Origin: Escherichia phage vB_EcoM_SP13
Length of the DNA stretch: 64,000 bases
Sequence record: OP352608
Strand: one strand, 5' to 3'
Shown: positions 39,899 through 46,806 of the stretch, one piece after another
Position numbering within the stretch: position 1 is the first letter of the stretch
Layout: each line of letters starts with the position of its first letter
Translations under genes and position numbers: made by a program
Notes under the pieces: generated by a model
Told to the model about the DNA's origin: nothing
The model's input: only the letters and a program-made list of their open reading frames with translations
The model's database searches: none

Positions 39899-40450
39899 TT
39901 ATACAGTGTACGGAGTACCGTCTTGATTCAAGCGCACGATAAACTTCAAATCAACGCCGATGATTTCACGCGTATCAAAGATCACATAGTTGTAACGACG
40001 TTGACCAGCAATGTTCGGGTTGGTATGAGAGTCAGTTACAACTTCCTGTGCAACCTGAATACCTTCTTCTTTAAAGAACTTACGCCATTCAGCAAGTTCA
40101 GCGGCAGTCACGTGCATGCCAAGGTGGCTGACCTGATTGTCATGCGCATCGATATATTCGATGTTTTCGTTAATCCAGTTGCAGCCCATTGTGTAGTCAA
40201 GGATTTCAAGCTCAAGAGGCTTACCAGCGCCGCCATCAGTACCGTTGCCAGCCTGATAGTTGAAGCGCAAGTCAGCTTCATTGGTGCAATCGTCGCGACG
40301 ACCTTTAAAGTCATCAGCTTCAAATACGCGACCAGTAGCAACAACATGATCATGGAACCATTCTGTCAGGCCGATTTTAGCCAAGAAATCCTGTGCGCGC
40401 TGAGCATCTGGAATTGACAGGGCGATTTGTTCAATTTTAAAATGTGGCAT
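39899..40450 (-). CDS. VOC (glyoxalase/bleomycin-resistance-like) family protein
   Basis: Two beta-alpha-beta-like modules (KIEQIALSIPDAQRAQDFL; HLGMHVTAAELAEWRKFF) reminiscent of VOC fold; motif-level only. Confidence 0.35.
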   Translation of the reverse strand: MPHFKIEQIALSIPDAQRAQDFLAKIGLTEWFHDHVVATGRVFEADDFKGRRDDCTNEADLRFNYQAGNGTDGGAGKPLELEILDYTMGCNWINENIEYIDAHDNQVSHLGMHVTAAELAEWRKFFKEEGIQVAQEVVTDSHTNPNIAGQRRYNYVIFDTREIIGVDLKFIVRLNQDGTPYTV

Positions 40451-40546
40451 TTTGTTTCCTTAATTAAATATTATTGATTAATTACTGCGTTGTCTTCGTC
40501 CTGTTTCTTTTCAGGAGCGGGTGTGACAACTTCAAGTGTTCGTGAT

Positions 40547-41230
40547 TTATTTACCAAATGGAATATCAGTGCCAGACATAAAGCGCCATGCGCCCGTAAT
40601 TAAGATATGGCGAATGAAGTCAGCAATTACTTGCGGCTCAGTCTCCAATCCATTCATCAGTGCCTTTTTCTGGTATTCAGCGGCGTATTCAGGAGTCCAG
40701 CCGCGAGTCGCGCAAACGGCATCTTCAATCTGTTTAGACATGCCAGTGCCGCGCAACTTGTTAGGACTAATAGAGAATACCGTGATGCCGTACTTAGGCG
40801 TAAGTTCGTGAGCCATCTGCTTGCTGATCATAAGCGCAGCGGCCTTGGATGCATTATAACACAAGCTGGACGTCATAGGAATATGCGCAGCATTTGAAAC
40901 GATGTTGATCACAAAACCTTTGTTTTCGATAAGACCTTTCAGCGCGGCCTGAGTCGTGTTAACGAAAGAGAATGCATTGGTGTGCATAACGCGGTTAAAC
41001 TCTTCATAGTTTACATCTTCAAACCAATTGTTAGAGTTGACACCAGCACAGTTGATCAAGCCTTCAACATCATATGGGCTTAAAATTTCTTTCATCTGTT
41101 TAGCATCGCGGACGTCATATCCGTATGCTGAATCGATGCCAAGCACGTTATGACCGTAAGCGCCAAGGGTGTCAAAAATAGATTTACCAAGACCGGAATT
41201 GGAACCTGTTACAACAATTACTTTTTTCAT
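40547..41230 (-). CDS. short-chain dehydrogenase/reductase (SDR)
   Basis: Cofactor motif VTGSNSGLGK, NCAG, catalytic YNASK. Confidence 0.65.
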   Translation of the reverse strand: MKKVIVVTGSNSGLGKSIFDTLGAYGHNVLGIDSAYGYDVRDAKQMKEILSPYDVEGLINCAGVNSNNWFEDVNYEEFNRVMHTNAFSFVNTTQAALKGLIENKGFVINIVSNAAHIPMTSSLCYNASKAAALMISKQMAHELTPKYGITVFSISPNKLRGTGMSKQIEDAVCATRGWTPEYAAEYQKKALMNGLETEPQVIADFIRHILITGAWRFMSGTDIPFGK

Positions 41231-41295
41231 TTATTTATCCTTTTTGGACTTCGTTTCGATGAGGTAAATATAACTCATCGAAACGAACAAGTAAA

Positions 41296-42168
41296 CTATT
41301 TATTGAAATTAATATTATGGGTGTTTACAAGACGTTCACACATGGCGCTATAAACACCATCGTCGTGTATTGAGTCTTCGTGCTTCAGGCCGCTGATTGC
41401 GAAGCGTGTAAGCTTGACAATCTTAAGCTCGAACAGATGCCACATGTGGTAGTCTTCCGGCGTTTTCAACGTTACGCCATTAGGGAAAAGCACCTGCATA
41501 ACCTGACCTACCATCACAGCGTTATCGCCATAGACAGCGTTGCGCTCACGGAAGGTCGCTGCCATTGCATCAAGAATATCGGCGGCAGTTGCCGGAGATT
41601 GTTCAACTTCCACAGCCTTAGTCTCTTCTTGCCCTGTTGCGCTTGGATCAATTGCTAATTGTTGCACCACTTCACCTGCTTTGCAAAGATTAAATGTAAA
41701 AGCGATTTTATTTTGAGCAACGGAGTTATAATACAATGCTTCATCTTGCATCCGCGCGAGTACGTCTTGTCGGTCGTCGAATACATTGATGATTCGATAA
41801 TCGCCGTGCCGCAAAGCGTGCGATAGCCATGCAGATTTCATAATAGTTGATGGACGTTTGTCGCCATAGTCTCTCATCTTGATTGTAAATTCATCAAAAG
41901 GGAAAACATTGTCCAGACGTTCAAAAGTCACTTGTCTGTATTTTTCTGGCCTTGCAGTCCAATATTCAACCGCCTCACCGCGAAGAGATGCCGACTCTAC
42001 TGCTGATGCAATGTGAGGATAGAACTGATCATAACCAATACCGCTGTGATAGTCATCATAGTCTGACAACGGACCTGCCACCTTGATGCGGTCTAAGCGC
42101 CAACGGTCATCAAACAGAGTTCCGTCAAGGTCGAATACGTTTAAGATTTGGTTATTTTTGATACTCAT
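41296..42168 (-). CDS. HAD-superfamily phosphatase with C-terminal domain of unknown function
   Basis: N-terminal HAD motif I FDLDGTLFDD; about 120-aa C-terminal extension not recognised. Confidence 0.5.
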   Translation of the reverse strand: MSIKNNQILNVFDLDGTLFDDRWRLDRIKVAGPLSDYDDYHSGIGYDQFYPHIASAVESASLRGEAVEYWTARPEKYRQVTFERLDNVFPFDEFTIKMRDYGDKRPSTIMKSAWLSHALRHGDYRIINVFDDRQDVLARMQDEALYYNSVAQNKIAFTFNLCKAGEVVQQLAIDPSATGQEETKAVEVEQSPATAADILDAMAATFRERNAVYGDNAVMVGQVMQVLFPNGVTLKTPEDYHMWHLFELKIVKLTRFAISGLKHEDSIHDDGVYSAMCERLVNTHNINFNK

Positions 42169-42968
42169 CCTTTTGATACTCCATCTTTGGCAACCGGATT
42201 ATTGGTGATTGGCATCGCATCCCAAAACTGGATGCGCAACTCTTCTTGCTGTGCAGTGGTATCCATCCAATCACGATACCAAGGGCAATGGGCCTTGCCA
42301 TGGCGAGGGAATGCGCACTTGCCCATACCGATGCATTGCGGCTGTAGTAAAGGATTAGCCCACGGGTGCACCTTGAGGACTTCCGCTACCATCGCACGGA
42401 AAACTTCCTGATACTCGCCTTGAGTACGCGTGCACAAGCGGTTAGAGGCCATTTGTTGTAGAGTGCGCAAGTTGAACTTTGCCATGATATGCGTTTGCAT
42501 ATTAGAAGGCAACACGGCACGTGCATCTTGAATCTCTGCGCCAGCCGCGCGAAGTTCTTGGTATAGGGCGTCAATGGTTGCCATTGCATCATCCCATTTC
42601 TCTGCCAGTTCAGCAGCCTTCTCGTCATGACGAGTCCATCCCTTTGGATCATCCTCTGGGTAAGTGAATTTGGCAGGACGAATCGCATCAAACGCTGACG
42701 ACTCCTGAGCGCGGCTTGTTCGTTCTTGATATGCACCTGTTCGTGTGCGCACCATCTGATGAGTCATATTCTTTGATACATCAGTGATGTCAAAGATATA
42801 GTCAACAAAGTCGAAAGGTGACTTTATGGTGTCAAGCATGTAGCGCCAGTGCTCTTGCTTCTCTGATTCTGTCATCTCAGAGACTGGCTTACCAGCCATG
42901 CGCGTATTCTTTGTTTCCAGCAGAAGGTCAAGTGCATCTTGGGTGTATCGAATTAATTCAACTTTCAT
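42165..42968 (-). CDS. thyX: flavin-dependent thymidylate synthase ThyX-like
   Basis: ThyX-like blocks: VRTRTGAYQERTSR (RHR-x8-S motif with His replaced by Thr), ARAVLPSNMQTHIMAKFNLRTL; extra Cys/His-rich C-terminal 50 aa. Confidence 0.6.
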   Translation of the reverse strand: MKVELIRYTQDALDLLLETKNTRMAGKPVSEMTESEKQEHWRYMLDTIKSPFDFVDYIFDITDVSKNMTHQMVRTRTGAYQERTSRAQESSAFDAIRPAKFTYPEDDPKGWTRHDEKAAELAEKWDDAMATIDALYQELRAAGAEIQDARAVLPSNMQTHIMAKFNLRTLQQMASNRLCTRTQGEYQEVFRAMVAEVLKVHPWANPLLQPQCIGMGKCAFPRHGKAHCPWYRDWMDTTAQQEELRIQFWDAMPITNNPVAKDGVSKG

Positions 42969-42981
42969 TTTAATTATCCTA

Positions 42982-43428
42982 TTAACGGTAGTTAACTAGT
43001 TGCTGATCACCAGAGAAGGTGCAATGATAAACGAATTGTGCGTTATAAAGCAACTGAAAACTTTTCTTTGGTTCATTATTAGAACTCATTGATGTAAAGA
43101 TTTCTGCACCAGAACGGTTTTCACCAATCAGGTTGATAAAGCCGCCAGTTGAACGAGGCTGAACGAAAGTGAAACGTTGCATCCACGGAGTGCGGTTGGC
43201 ACCTTTCCCTGTGAATCCTTGAATCTGAATATTCAGGCCTTCTTGCTCGTTCACACCGATGTAAGTGGTAATTGTTGCGCCAGTCGTTGCTGCAGTCTTG
43301 CCGTCCATCGCTTCGCAATCGTAAACAGCGATTGAATCGGAAGTACGGACAGCGGCTTCAGTCGCTTCCATATACATGGTTCCGAGAATAGCAGTTGCGG
43401 CAAGCGCGATTCCAGTGATTCGTTTCAT
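42982..43428 (-). CDS. secreted protein of unknown function
   Basis: Signal-peptide-like N-terminus MKRITGIALAATAILGTMYMEATEA. Confidence 0.45.
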   Translation of the reverse strand: MKRITGIALAATAILGTMYMEATEAAVRTSDSIAVYDCEAMDGKTAATTGATITTYIGVNEQEGLNIQIQGFTGKGANRTPWMQRFTFVQPRSTGGFINLIGENRSGAEIFTSMSSNNEPKKSFQLLYNAQFVYHCTFSGDQQLVNYR

Positions 43429-43493
43429 TTTCGTTTCCTCTATGAGTTCTGCTTCAATGATTAAAGTATACGCCCATTGAAGCAGAAAGCAAA

Positions 43494-44489
43494 TTATTTA
43501 TTAGCAATATAAGCAAATTTTTGATAGTTATTTGCTTTGATGAGTTTTTCAACTTCAACAAGGTCATGAGCAACGTCATCAAGCAAAATGTTTCGCCAAG
43601 TAGCAAAGCGACCGACACTAAATACGTTCAAATCCATGGTCAGCTGTAGGAGTAGAGCGTGTCGCAAGTCTTTCGGAATGTCGACAATCTTGCCATACTT
43701 CTGGTCGACCTTTTCAACTTCTTCGAGATCGATGTCACTCCATGATAGGCCAAAGGCTGTCAATACTTCGTCAACTTCTGCACGCAACTTAATGTCACGG
43801 TAACGAGTAATGCCGCCAGCGGCTTCAACTGCGGCTTCACTTACGCTAACCAAAGGAATTGTTTCAATGATCAGTGTGTCACCAGTGATTGATGCGCGGT
43901 AAGTTCTGACGGAGTAGTCAGGAAAGTAAATGGTTTGATACAGTGCACACTTGCGCTTAATCTTAAAGCGGTAAACACGAATGTTTGCCTTATCGAATGA
44001 GAAATCAATCTTTTGATCAATCCCAGCAAGCTTCATCATGACTGGCAGCGGCGACGTGTTGATGATTGGCGTCTCGCTATAGCCGCAAAGAGTATCAACA
44101 GGAGTATTAAAGAATATGCGGTCACCCAGTTTGTCGACAAGCTGATCATAAAAGTCATCAGGCGCAATATAACGCGTTGCAGTTTTAAGCTTCATGATTG
44201 AGCGGCTACCGAATTGATTAGTGACCTTCATGGAATACATATTGGCAAGGTTGATTGGGCAATGGTCGTGGTAGTAGTTGCCGCGAAAATACACAGCCTT
44301 GTCAACTGTCACGGCCTTAAAAGGGATTCCGGTAATACGGCTTACTTCTTCGCCGCGAAATCGTAGCAAAGCCTTGTGCTGTGGCGCTCGTTCCCCTGCT
44401 TCGTACACAATGGAGTTCGGGAAGTGACACGCGGTAATAAGTCCTGCCAAACCGCCGCCGATAATCATTACAGGTTGTTTCATGTTCAT
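43494..44489 (-). CDS. FAD/NAD(P)-binding oxidoreductase
   Basis: N-terminal Rossmann dinucleotide-binding motif VMIIGGGLAGL; 331 aa; function unknown. Confidence 0.5.
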   Translation of the reverse strand: MNMKQPVMIIGGGLAGLITACHFPNSIVYEAGERAPQHKALLRFRGEEVSRITGIPFKAVTVDKAVYFRGNYYHDHCPINLANMYSMKVTNQFGSRSIMKLKTATRYIAPDDFYDQLVDKLGDRIFFNTPVDTLCGYSETPIINTSPLPVMMKLAGIDQKIDFSFDKANIRVYRFKIKRKCALYQTIYFPDYSVRTYRASITGDTLIIETIPLVSVSEAAVEAAGGITRYRDIKLRAEVDEVLTAFGLSWSDIDLEEVEKVDQKYGKIVDIPKDLRHALLLQLTMDLNVFSVGRFATWRNILLDDVAHDLVEVEKLIKANNYQKFAYIANK

Positions 44490-44622
44490 TTGTCCTTTGT
44501 GGGTGATATGAGAAGTATAATAGCTAAATTATTTTACAGCAACAAGTCATTTCTATTTAGTACAGACGAAAAAGACCCACAACAAGTGTGGGTCAATTAC
44601 CGCTATATAACCGTCCTACAGG

Positions 44623-45462
44623 TTATTCCGCTTGATCACCGTCTTCGGCATTGTCGTTGGATTCAACATCGACAAACTCGATGTGGCCCATCTCTTCCAG
44701 CTTGCTCAGGTAGGAGCGAACGGAAGCGCCAAACAGTTGATCTTTAACTTTTTCGCCCAGCTCATCGATAGACTGCGCCACGCCAACTTCGCCTTCTTTG
44801 ATCGCCGCCAGAACGCGTCCACGGGTGGAATGCTCTTGCGGCTGGCTCAGGCCATTGCCGGTGTAGATGAAGTGAGTGGCTTTTGCACGACGCTGACCGT
44901 TTGCCTTTTTAGCAGCCTTGCGCTCTGCGATGGCTTTGCGACGTTCTTCAGCTTCTTTCTTACGCTGTTCTTTCTGCTGTTCTGCAGCTTCTTTAGCCGC
45001 AATCTTAGCAGCTTCACGCTCTGCCTTGCGTTTCGCTTTAGCTTCTTCTTTGGCCTTCTCTTTTTCGGCCTTCGCTGCAGCACGGGCTTGATCACGCTCT
45101 GCTTTCTTGGCCGCAGCCTGCTCAGCTTTCAGGCGCTTGGCTTCTTCTTTAGCCTTTGCCTTTTCGATTTCTTTTGCTGCTTTAGCGGCTTCACGCTCTG
45201 CTTTCTTAGCAGCAGCCTTTTCTGCACGCTCTTTAGCTTTCTTAGCTGCTTCTTCAGCACGCTTCTGCGCCTTCTCATCAGCAGCCTGCTTGCGTTTCAG
45301 CGCAGCTTCTTCACGCTTGGCTTGTTTTTCCTGCTCACGCTTCTGGCGCTTCTCTTCGGCTTCTTTCTTTTTAGCCAGGCGTTTTTCTTCAGCCACGCGA
45401 CGACGTTCTGCTGCGGCTGCTTGTTTTTCTTCTTTAGATAATACTTTGATTGCTTCGGCCAT
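44623..45462 (-). CDS. highly charged K/A/E-rich protein with globular C-terminal domain
   Basis: About 190 aa of KAE-rich low-complexity repeats (AKKAKERAEKAAAKKAERE...) then a 70-aa non-repetitive C-terminus; AAGGA RBS before ATG 45462. Confidence 0.5.
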   Translation of the reverse strand: MAEAIKVLSKEEKQAAAAERRRVAEEKRLAKKKEAEEKRQKREQEKQAKREEAALKRKQAADEKAQKRAEEAAKKAKERAEKAAAKKAEREAAKAAKEIEKAKAKEEAKRLKAEQAAAKKAERDQARAAAKAEKEKAKEEAKAKRKAEREAAKIAAKEAAEQQKEQRKKEAEERRKAIAERKAAKKANGQRRAKATHFIYTGNGLSQPQEHSTRGRVLAAIKEGEVGVAQSIDELGEKVKDQLFGASVRSYLSKLEEMGHIEFVDVESNDNAEDGDQAE

Positions 45463-45621
45463 ATTCACAGTCCTTAAATAAATTAGTTTATTTTATATTC
45501 CCCGTTTGGGATAACTTAATTATGCCTTCAGTTGCCGCCAGTAGCAACTAAAAACTATGGCGGCAATGCCACTTTAATTAAACTGATTTTCAGTTTTATT
45601 TTTCGTAAATTTACGTCAACA

Positions 45622-46806
45622 TTAACGCGCTTTCAAATCACGGTACACGGTCAGATTCTTCTTAGCACGGGTGATAGCGGTGTACATCATCTTGGAGTAC
45701 GGAACGCCGCGCAAGATTTCTTCCAGCACGCACACATTATCCCACTCGCTGCCTTGCGATTTGTGCACCGTGATGACATAGCCATAGTCCATCCCGCCAA
45801 CAGCGCGTTGCGCTTCTTTGCGCACTTCCTGATCAGTAGAGAAGGAAAGAGGATTGATCTTCACCTTTATATCTTTACCATCAGTTAATGAACGCAAGTT
45901 GACATACATTATTTCATTCGACTCATCTTCATCCCTTTCAAAGTCCGGCACTGGCTCATAGCTAATAACAATCCCTTGCTCGCCATTACAGAATCCTGGA
46001 CCGTGTTGGTTGAATGTGCAAATAACCTTCTCGCCGATTCCTGGCATTGGCGTTATACGTCCGCTCACTTGCCGTAATAATGAATTCCATTTATCTTTGG
46101 TGCTATTATAGGAGCAAATAATTTGATCATCTTCGCCCATGAATTTCTTCAATGCAGTAACGCGCGGCGATTCTGCCAATACTTTGACGTCATCGTATTC
46201 ACGCGGGGGAAGGCGGTTGCCTTGGCGCACGAAGAAGGAGGCGCGGATTATATTGGACTCTTTCCCTTGCCGCATGATTTCGGTTAACAGCACGTCAACG
46301 GCATCTTCAGTAAAGTAGGCGGCGGCTTTTACCGGAGGGACTTGTCCAATGTCGCCTAATGCCAGGACAGGGATGCGGTGATCAAGAAGGCGCTCTGTGT
46401 CCCACTCGCCAACCATCGACGCTTCATCGAGTACAACAAGGTGCGGCCTTTCATCCAGCTTTGACTTTCTCGAAAAGATTGGCTCATTGTCGTCATTTAC
46501 GCCGCGCACGTTATAGATGAACTGGTGAAGGGTCTTAGCGCCACGACAGCCTTTTTGCTTTAATCGGCTTGCAGCCTTTCCGGTCGGCGCAATATAGATA
46601 GCTCCATACTCACCGACACAACGGCGCACAATCTCGCGAGCAATAGAGGTTTTACCAGTCCCTGCATAGCCAGCGATGAAAAACACGCGCTTCGTCGTTT
46701 TACCGTCCTGCAATCGCTTGTACCATGCAACGGCTTTCTCGATGGCGTCGATTTGTTGCGCGTTAAACTGAATCACTGGCTCATCATTAAATTCTGGAAT
46801 GTTCAT
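45622..46806 (-). CDS. Dda/RecD-like SF1 DNA helicase
   Basis: Walker A AGYAGTGKT, Walker B VVLDEASMV, C-terminal VITVHKSQGSEWDNV and TAITRAK motifs. Confidence 0.7.
   Translation of the reverse strand: MNIPEFNDEPVIQFNAQQIDAIEKAVAWYKRLQDGKTTKRVFFIAGYAGTGKTSIAREIVRRCVGEYGAIYIAPTGKAASRLKQKGCRGAKTLHQFIYNVRGVNDDNEPIFSRKSKLDERPHLVVLDEASMVGEWDTERLLDHRIPVLALGDIGQVPPVKAAAYFTEDAVDVLLTEIMRQGKESNIIRASFFVRQGNRLPPREYDDVKVLAESPRVTALKKFMGEDDQIICSYNSTKDKWNSLLRQVSGRITPMPGIGEKVICTFNQHGPGFCNGEQGIVISYEPVPDFERDEDESNEIMYVNLRSLTDGKDIKVKINPLSFSTDQEVRKEAQRAVGGMDYGYVITVHKSQGSEWDNVCVLEEILRGVPYSKMMYTAITRAKKNLTVYRDLKAR

Follow-up and report, generated by a model that had tools for sequence, protein, structure and literature searches.

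An open reading frame (ORF) on the minus strand of Escherichia phage vB_EcoM_SP13 (sequence record OP352608; positions 42165..42968 of the 64,000-nucleotide stretch analysed here, hereafter the window) encodes a protein that resembles the flavin-dependent thymidylate synthase ThyX, and in this protein the signature motif RHR reads RTR and the C-terminus carries additional cysteines and histidines. A first-pass annotation of the window noted both features as departures from canonical ThyX and suggested that either could mean altered chemistry or regulation. The locus thus raises the question of whether it encodes an aberrant ThyX or a regular member of a wider group. Compared at the sequence level, the phage ThyX falls into a branch, rich in viruses, of a large four-cysteine ThyX subfamily that has not been characterised structurally, and we regard it as fairly probable that it is the phage's own functional flavin-dependent thymidylate synthase of this subfamily, equipped with a Cys4 metal site that would hold either an iron-sulfur (Fe-S) cluster or zinc (Zn).

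Family assignment and the RTR motif

The ORF begins with ATG, comprises 267 codons and a stop, and is preceded by AGGA 8 nt upstream of the start. Its initial assignment to a ThyX-like protein was confirmed for exactly this frame by the ORF list and translation, Pfam, PHROG and an AlphaFold2 (AF2) model. Pfam Thy1 (PF02511) matches residues 5–203 (42360..42956, minus strand) over profile positions 2–191 of 191 with E = 1.4e-30 and 106.9 bits, the cut-off (gathering score) being 24.8 bits, and the match to PHROG 85, 'thymidylate synthase', has E = 2.4e-38. The AF2 model, for which 63 homologues served as input, shows a ThyX fold (predicted local distance difference test, pLDDT, 89; predicted TM-score, pTM, 0.82) and is confident in the tail too, with block-mean pLDDT values of 93–97 over residues 191–250 (93–95 over 211–250). 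In a Foldseek comparison of this model with the PDB, all top 50 matches were ThyX or PolB, and the match to Thermotoga maritima ThyX (1o26), which also supports the extent of the catalytic domain, reached E = 1.3e-10 with a TM-score of 0.62 when normalised to the length of the query and 0.74 when normalised to that of the target. Structure modelling, proposed at first pass as a check, thus returned the expected fold, and the ORF product is a Thy1/ThyX-family protein. Dozens of phage records already label this gene thymidylate synthase. Positions 40000-46000 of the window, ThyX gene included, are 100% identical to Escherichia phage F13 (OP745617), a Wifcevirus and a relative of Pseudomonas phage PB1, and show 92-97% identity with other Wifcevirus phages such as vB_Eco4M-7, WFC/WFH, ECML-117 and BASEL Bas98-101.

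The motif residues R74-T75-R76 (42741..42749, minus strand; codons CGC ACA CGA) align, in single-sequence as well as profile alignments, with R78-H79-R80 of T. maritima ThyX and with the RHR of the Thermus and Mycobacterium tuberculosis enzymes, and the replacement of the motif histidine by threonine is genuine. An intact RHR elsewhere in the protein was found neither in the sequence nor in the alignments to solved ThyX, so that the initial observation stands. The signature RHR-x7/8-S does not run through the phage ThyX, which retains both arginines and the later R86 and has T84 at the canonical serine position (x7) and S85 at x8; across the family, position x7 is S, T or A.

Concerning the distribution of the change, RTR is present in all 121 sequences formed by the query and its 120 closest database homologues, down to ~54% identity. 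Among the best 150 representatives from an exhaustive HMMER scan (1622 matches at E<=0.001), RTR is the commonest state with 71 sequences, followed by RHR (33), RQR (15), RSR (10) and RNR (7), and one of the five residues T, H, Q, S and N, all of which can form hydrogen bonds, occupies the middle position in 136 of the 143 representatives that cover the motif. PB1 itself has RTR; RQR occurs in Mycobacterium phage Benzema and Gordonia phage Sadboi, RSR in Leopard and Streptomyces phage Dryad, and RNR in Vibrio phage VA-RY-3. In these alignments RTR is fixed across the PB1-like/Wifcevirus lineage and ordinary for the virus-rich ThyX branch, and it is hence no peculiarity of this gene.

In solved enzymes, the RHR motif forms hydrogen bonds with the phosphates and the ribityl moiety of flavin adenine dinucleotide (FAD) (PMC6514825). 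The restriction of the middle position to polar, hydrogen-bonding residues is what would be expected if this contact role were preserved. We thus propose that the change from His to Thr is a tolerated variant at an FAD-phosphate contact, where a small polar hydrogen-bonding residue (T, H, Q, S or N) may be accepted. RTR alone gives no indication of altered chemistry or regulation. The first-pass annotation had named common RTR homologues known to make deoxythymidine monophosphate (dTMP) as the finding that would count against it; such homologues are indeed common, as the census of representatives shows, while experimental proof of a dTMP product for an RTR-type enzyme was not found in the literature searched. 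The one characterised phage enzyme that we checked, gp48 of mycobacteriophage L5, has the canonical RHR.

Two side observations concern other ThyX-like relatives. Three of them (P0158, P0167 and P0268) carry inteins just before profile positions 65-71, beside RxR, and four (P0159, P0251, P0249 and P0216) have N-terminal extensions of 150-350 residues without a Pfam match.

The four-cysteine element

The Pfam Thy1 domain is followed by 64 residues that hold C212, C218, C228, H223 and H227. This tail had been described at first pass as Cys/His-rich and extra to ThyX; its existence and its cysteines bear out that description, the histidines do not. The three cysteines form a C212-x5-C218-x9-C228 segment (42285..42335, minus strand), which aligns with C-x5-C-x4-9-C of cellular ThyX. 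A fourth cysteine, C179 (42432..42434, minus strand), which is the first of the conserved Cys4, lies in the core and not in the tail, within R177-L-C, two residues past the catalytic arginine R177 (T. maritima R174). All four cysteines are invariant in the 121 sequences mentioned above. In a second set of 46 sequences, chosen for divergence and having a mean column identity of 22%, the sole invariant columns are R74, R86, Y136, R150, R177 and, again, the four cysteines. This invariance of RTR and the four cysteines among the 121 sequences, extending for the cysteines to 22% mean identity, argues against chance. Furthermore, ~87 of the ~150 representatives have all four cysteines, whether their motif reads RTR, RHR, RQR or RSR. 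In contrast, the tail histidines vary among the 121 sequences (H223 is H, W, Y or F; H227 is H, Q, N, R, K or S). Being unconserved, they are incidental, and we dropped them as candidate metal ligands.

Beyond the cysteines, a distal tail comprising residues 229-267 (42168..42284, minus strand) was delimited from the list of invariant residues in the phage-lineage alignment. PB1-like and Wifcevirus phages share W234, M235, D236, F248, W249, P258 and G263 without exception. Only residues ~243-267, however, are specific to this group, since the hhalign match to cellular ThyX ends near residues 242-244.

For the cellular sequences, we defined an informal four-cysteine ThyX subgroup by R-x-C at the catalytic arginine and three cysteines after the last core helix. 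The phage ThyX has this pattern, and its cysteines align column for column with those of the cellular group. An hhalign comparison of the phage-lineage profile with the cellular four-cysteine profile matched columns 2-242 at a probability of 99.85% (E=1.4e-30), with RLC and every tail cysteine aligned. A distant representative with canonical residues (P0265) has >8000 homologues, and its best 120, which come from Chloroflexota, WOR-3, Bacteroidota, Zixibacteria, Eisenbacteria and Armatimonadota on contigs of up to 200 kb, all have RHR and all four cysteines; P0265 itself scores 178.2 bits with NCBIfam TIGR02170, the thyX equivalog, above the cut-off of 87.9. A scan using one genome per species matched at least 594 genomes, and among the 80 loci kept, RHR is present in 80 and R-x-C together with C-x4-7-C-x4-11-C in 79. 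Carriers include Dehalococcoidia with Dehalococcoides mccartyi, Anaeromyxobacter terrae SG22, Desulfuromonadales/Geobacteraceae, Pelobacter, Methanomassiliicoccus, Thermoplasmata, Binataceae and one 5.4-Mb Armatimonadota chromosome. Many of these lineages are generally regarded as anaerobic. In the cellular proteins, a glutamate is conserved after the third cysteine (C-[PD]-E). The Cys element also occurs together with RHR in Clostridium phage phiCP26F and Sulfolobus virus SMV3.

The presence of the element in cellular ThyX rules out that the cysteine tail is a phage invention, and up to about residue 242 the tail, like the motif, is no singularity of this gene. Given how widespread the subfamily is in cellular genomes, on contigs of up to several Mb, one would expect its members to function as thymidylate synthases.

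None of the solved ThyX structures covers the Cys element: PDB alignments of the query, of the query profile and of P0265 all end between residues 183 and 204. At the position of C179, solved ThyX have D or S, and the M. tuberculosis enzyme reads R-A-S where the subfamily reads R-L-C. A literature search for ThyX in connection with iron-sulfur, zinc, cysteines or Pbunavirus returned nothing relevant, and within the literature and structures searched, a Cys4 site in ThyX has so far not been described.

Judged by its conservation, the Cys4 site probably binds a metal, and we slightly favour Fe-S over structural Zn. This preference comes from the absence of CxxC knuckles, from cysteines that are spaced widely and irregularly, and from the many reputedly anaerobic lineages among the cellular carriers, while the aerobic hosts of PB1-like phages lean away from it. 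The first of two more specific readings is that a purely structural Zn (or disulfides) in Cys4 would do no more than stabilise the tail of an otherwise ordinary ThyX dependent on reduced nicotinamide adenine dinucleotide phosphate (NADPH). We consider this quite possible, if not what we would expect: Cys4 sites very often hold structural Zn, the element is located at the C-terminal edge of the protein, and the hosts of the carrier phages, P. aeruginosa and E. coli among them, are aerobic. The missing knuckles, the variable spacing (C-x4-7-C-x4-11-C plus a distant cysteine beside the catalytic arginine, and C-x4-C-x2-C in phiCP26F) and the many reputedly anaerobic lineages among the named cellular carriers speak against it, but none of these is decisive. 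The second reading is that the invariant cysteines bind a redox-active Fe-S cluster beside the flavin, with electrons supplied by ferredoxin, flavodoxin or a partner reductase instead of, or besides, NADPH. We put this forward as a tentative idea that we rather doubt. If it were true, a large, unstudied ThyX subfamily would consist of Fe-S flavoenzymes. It would span the present phage lineage, many enzymes of actinophages and archaeal viruses, and the ThyX of Dehalococcoidia, Desulfuromonadales, Anaeromyxobacter, Armatimonadota and several archaea, and in the phage branch, which has lost the folate-stacking histidine, the carbon donor or the product of the reaction could be different as well.

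Active site and function of the phage enzyme

Mapping onto T. maritima ThyX shows which active-site residues the phage protein keeps. The T. maritima sequence used for numbering agrees with the PDB entries of the mutants H53A, S88A, R90A, Y91F, E144R and R174K in the numbers of these residues. The contact set for deoxyuridine monophosphate (dUMP) and flavin is identical throughout: T. maritima Q75, R78, R80, E86, R90, R147, N163, R165 and R174 correspond to Q71, R74, R76, E82, R86, R150, N166, R168 and R177 of the phage ThyX, and Q180 and E182 are likewise retained as Q183 and E185. The roles of these contact residues are those described for the T. maritima structures and in PMC6514825. R74, R86, R150 and R177 are unchanged across the 46 divergent members. 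Altered, on the other hand, are H53 (I48), H59 (F54), H79 (T75), S88 (T84), Y91 (A87) and H178 (R181), and when the two profiles are aligned, a 5-residue gap in that of the phages stands opposite the SGHH segment of cellular ThyX. In the T. maritima enzyme, H53 serves to stack on the pterin of folate and Y91 to contact the sugar of dUMP. An extended ThyX motif described by Ulmer et al. in 2008 reportedly includes T. maritima H53 (M. tuberculosis H69) and Y91 (M. tuberculosis Y108); at the corresponding positions, the phage ThyX has I48 and A87 in place of the histidine and the tyrosine.

The loss of several canonical motif residues, together with a score under the thyX equivalog cut-off, could also indicate a degenerate, catalytically dead ThyX relic kept for a non-enzymatic role, for example nucleotide binding or regulation. 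This we hold to be very improbable, given the strong purifying selection evident from the five residues and four cysteines invariant at 22% mean column identity, the fixation of RTR in 121 of 121 sequences and the confident AF2 model. In addition, some members of the branch host inteins beside RxR, and inteins often interrupt important genes (PMC5050341).

Our favoured reading, a functional four-cysteine ThyX with a metal site, would work as follows. We infer that the phage ThyX binds FAD and dUMP like canonical ThyX and makes dTMP for phage DNA replication. The C-terminal extension would fold back on the core, such that C212, C218 and C228 could form a Cys4 metal site with C179, and this site might either staple the tail over the active-site helix, which bears the catalytic arginine, or pass electrons to the flavin. 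In the replication module, the DNA polymerase/exonuclease genes lie to one side of ThyX and a Dda-like helicase gene to the other; the genome has 46.2% GC (PMC7048862).

Several points weigh against this reading. The protein departs from the strict ThyX motif, both by RTR and by threonine at the motif serine position. Its score with TIGR02170, 83.0 bits, is slightly below the whole-protein cut-off of 87.9 bits, which is consistent with the loss of canonical residues. I48, F54 and A87, which stand for T. maritima H53, H59 and Y91, are invariant in the phage lineage, and this loss, combined with the sub-threshold score, makes altered cofactor use or an altered product possible. The putative metal binding is read from conservation. 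Finally, in the PDB and the literature searched we found no RTR-branch or four-cysteine ThyX that has been assayed or solved. Thus, the part of the first-pass annotation that raised altered chemistry or regulation keeps some ground, and the stronger hints of it come not from RTR but from features that the first pass did not raise, a putative Cys4 metal site and the additional loss of the H53, H59 and Y91 equivalents.

ThyX is an antibacterial drug target, and PB1-like phages are a widely used therapeutic group. To our knowledge, the ThyX studied in depth are mostly a few enzymes without the Cys element, from Thermotoga, Mycobacterium, Helicobacter and PBCV-1. With a conserved Cys4 beside the catalytic arginine in hundreds of cellular species and in these phages, the textbook picture would omit a cofactor or a structural element of a major branch, and the site could bear on the identity of the in vivo flavin reductant. 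ThyX is also one of very few metabolic genes in Wifcevirus. Should the enzyme be a plain dTMP synthase with structural Zn, the result would merely be a broader ThyX motif, R-[HTQSN]-R. The noteworthy part is hence subfamily-wide, namely an invariant Cys4 near the active site, unseen in structures and carried by a large share of ThyX enzymes, to which the phage branch adds the loss of the folate-stacking histidine.

Neighbouring genes and altered chemistry

The ThyX gene belongs to a minus-strand replication module of ligase, MazG-like pyrophosphatase, helicases, DNA polymerase, exonuclease, a VOC/glyoxalase-like protein, an SDR, a HAD/PNKP-type phosphatase fusion, ThyX, a 148-aa protein, a 331-aa protein, a Lys/Ala/Glu-rich protein and the Dda-like helicase. 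Downstream of ThyX, the phosphatase fusion gene (41296..42168, minus strand) encodes a HAD_PNKP domain (Pfam E=5.3e-8, residues 11-142) and a C-terminal domain of ~120 residues for which searches of Pfam and the PDB gave no match. The start codon of the fusion gene and the stop codon of ThyX overlap in ATGA at 42165-42168, which suggests translational coupling of the two genes. The fusion could be a nucleotide phosphatase in the same pathway as ThyX; its PB1 neighbour counterpart is gp59. PB1 has the same order of 331-aa protein, ThyX and HAD fusion, and the SDR and VOC genes are absent there. In the window, these latter two genes lie between the exonuclease and the HAD gene (39899-41230, minus strand) and encode an SDR of 227 aa (adh_short, E=4.5e-31) and a protein of 183 aa whose VOC/glyoxalase-like assignment is weak (E=0.0025, below the cut-off).

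Upstream of ThyX, the gene for the 331-aa protein (43494-44489, minus strand; PHROG 4828) encodes an N-terminal IIGGGLAG dinucleotide-binding motif. Sequence searches of Pfam, NCBIfam and the PDB gave no match, but its AF2 model (pLDDT 86.6) shows a two-domain FAD fold nearest to UDP-galactopyranose mutases, renalase and amine oxidases. Its PB1 homologue is gp68, and among ~1900 database homologues the best are mostly on ~68-kb phage contigs. We considered this protein as a dedicated ThyX partner and rejected the idea: it is kept in PB1-like phages, but actinophage four-cysteine ThyX loci, whose ThyX neighbours are DnaE and RuvC, lack it, so that an obligate partnership is unsupported. Two further neighbours were noted, a 148-aa protein directly upstream of ThyX (42982-43428, minus strand), with a hydrophobic signal-like N-terminus and no family match, and, farther upstream, a 281-aa Lys/Ala/Glu-rich low-complexity protein (44623-45468, minus strand; PHROG 4765), called 'TolA protein' in some records. 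The curated annotation of the relative Bas99 shows no second thymidylate synthase; it also lacks a ribonucleotide reductase, a dCMP deaminase and any known gene for base modification.

With these neighbours in view, the ThyX scaffold might instead make a product other than dTMP that feeds a genome-protecting DNA modification, candidates being a 5-hydroxymethyl or other C5-substituted pyrimidine nucleotide, or another nucleotide methylated in the way PolB methylates uridine monophosphate (UMP). The attraction of this alternative lies in the restriction resistance of Wifcevirus phages, which in the BASEL study withstood all restriction-modification systems tested except EcoP1_I by a mechanism that is not known (PMC11990801). 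The loss of three conserved histidines and a tyrosine (T. maritima H53, H59, H79 and Y91), the score below the equivalog cut-off and the company of the HAD phosphatase fusion, the SDR, the VOC-like protein and the FAD-fold protein are all in its favour. We nevertheless find it unlikely. Every dUMP-contacting Arg, Gln and Glu position is retained, the same type of ThyX occurs among quite different neighbours in PB1-like, Gordonia, Mycobacterium and Streptomyces phages, genes for a DNA-base kinase, a glycosyl- or aminoacyl-transferase or any other known step of hypermodification are absent from the genome annotation, and the match to PolB is weak (phmmer E=0.94; Foldseek rank 30). Moreover, vB_Eco4M-7, 96.9% identical in this region, can be amplified by the polymerase chain reaction (PCR) and reboots from unmodified PCR fragments (PMC11074155). 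The reboot means that unmodified input DNA is infectious and is still compatible with modification of progeny DNA. As a separate observation, the enzyme cluster around ThyX is a candidate cause of the restriction resistance.

Comparison with known systems

T. maritima ThyX (TM0449, PDB 1o26) shares with the phage ThyX the fold and the arginines, Gln and Glu that contact dUMP and flavin. The two are ~20% identical, however, and the T. maritima enzyme has D176 instead of the cysteine and no Cys-bearing tail; its alignments to the phage ThyX end near query residue 204. Thermus thermophilus Thy1 (PDB 6j61), the best PDB profile match (E=1.3e-10), is a ThyX with an extra C-terminal domain, yet its motif is RHR, the alignment stops at profile position 201 and the extra domain does not align with the Cys tail. 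PolB, the UMP/dUMP methylase of polyoxin biosynthesis (PDB 4p5a/4p5b), has the ThyX fold with a changed substrate scope and thus shows that the scaffold can be retargeted, but its phmmer match to the phage ThyX is marginal and without a significant stretch, and its Foldseek match has a TM-score of 0.62.

Among phage proteins, ThyX of mycobacteriophage L5 (gp48) is likewise a Thy1-family enzyme, encoded by the phage within a module of nucleotide and replication genes; in contrast to the enzyme studied here, it has the canonical RHRHLSFSVVSQRY motif, lacks the Cys element and belongs to an M. tuberculosis-like group. Much closer is gp61 of Pseudomonas phage PB1, which is 48.6% identical over 99% of the query and agrees in RTR, the four cysteines, the distal tail and synteny, but differs by a ~40-residue insertion between the third and fourth cysteine. 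Gp61 and its PB1-like homologues are annotated as 'FAD-dependent thymidylate synthase'. Finally, the cellular four-cysteine ThyX align with the phage ThyX over the whole domain and the Cys4 element. They keep RHR (in 80 of 80 loci and 120 of 120 homologues), the SGHxSxxEH histidines and SQRY, in all of which the phage branch differs, and at ~225-245 aa they are shorter and end without the counterpart of residues ~243-267 of the phage ThyX.

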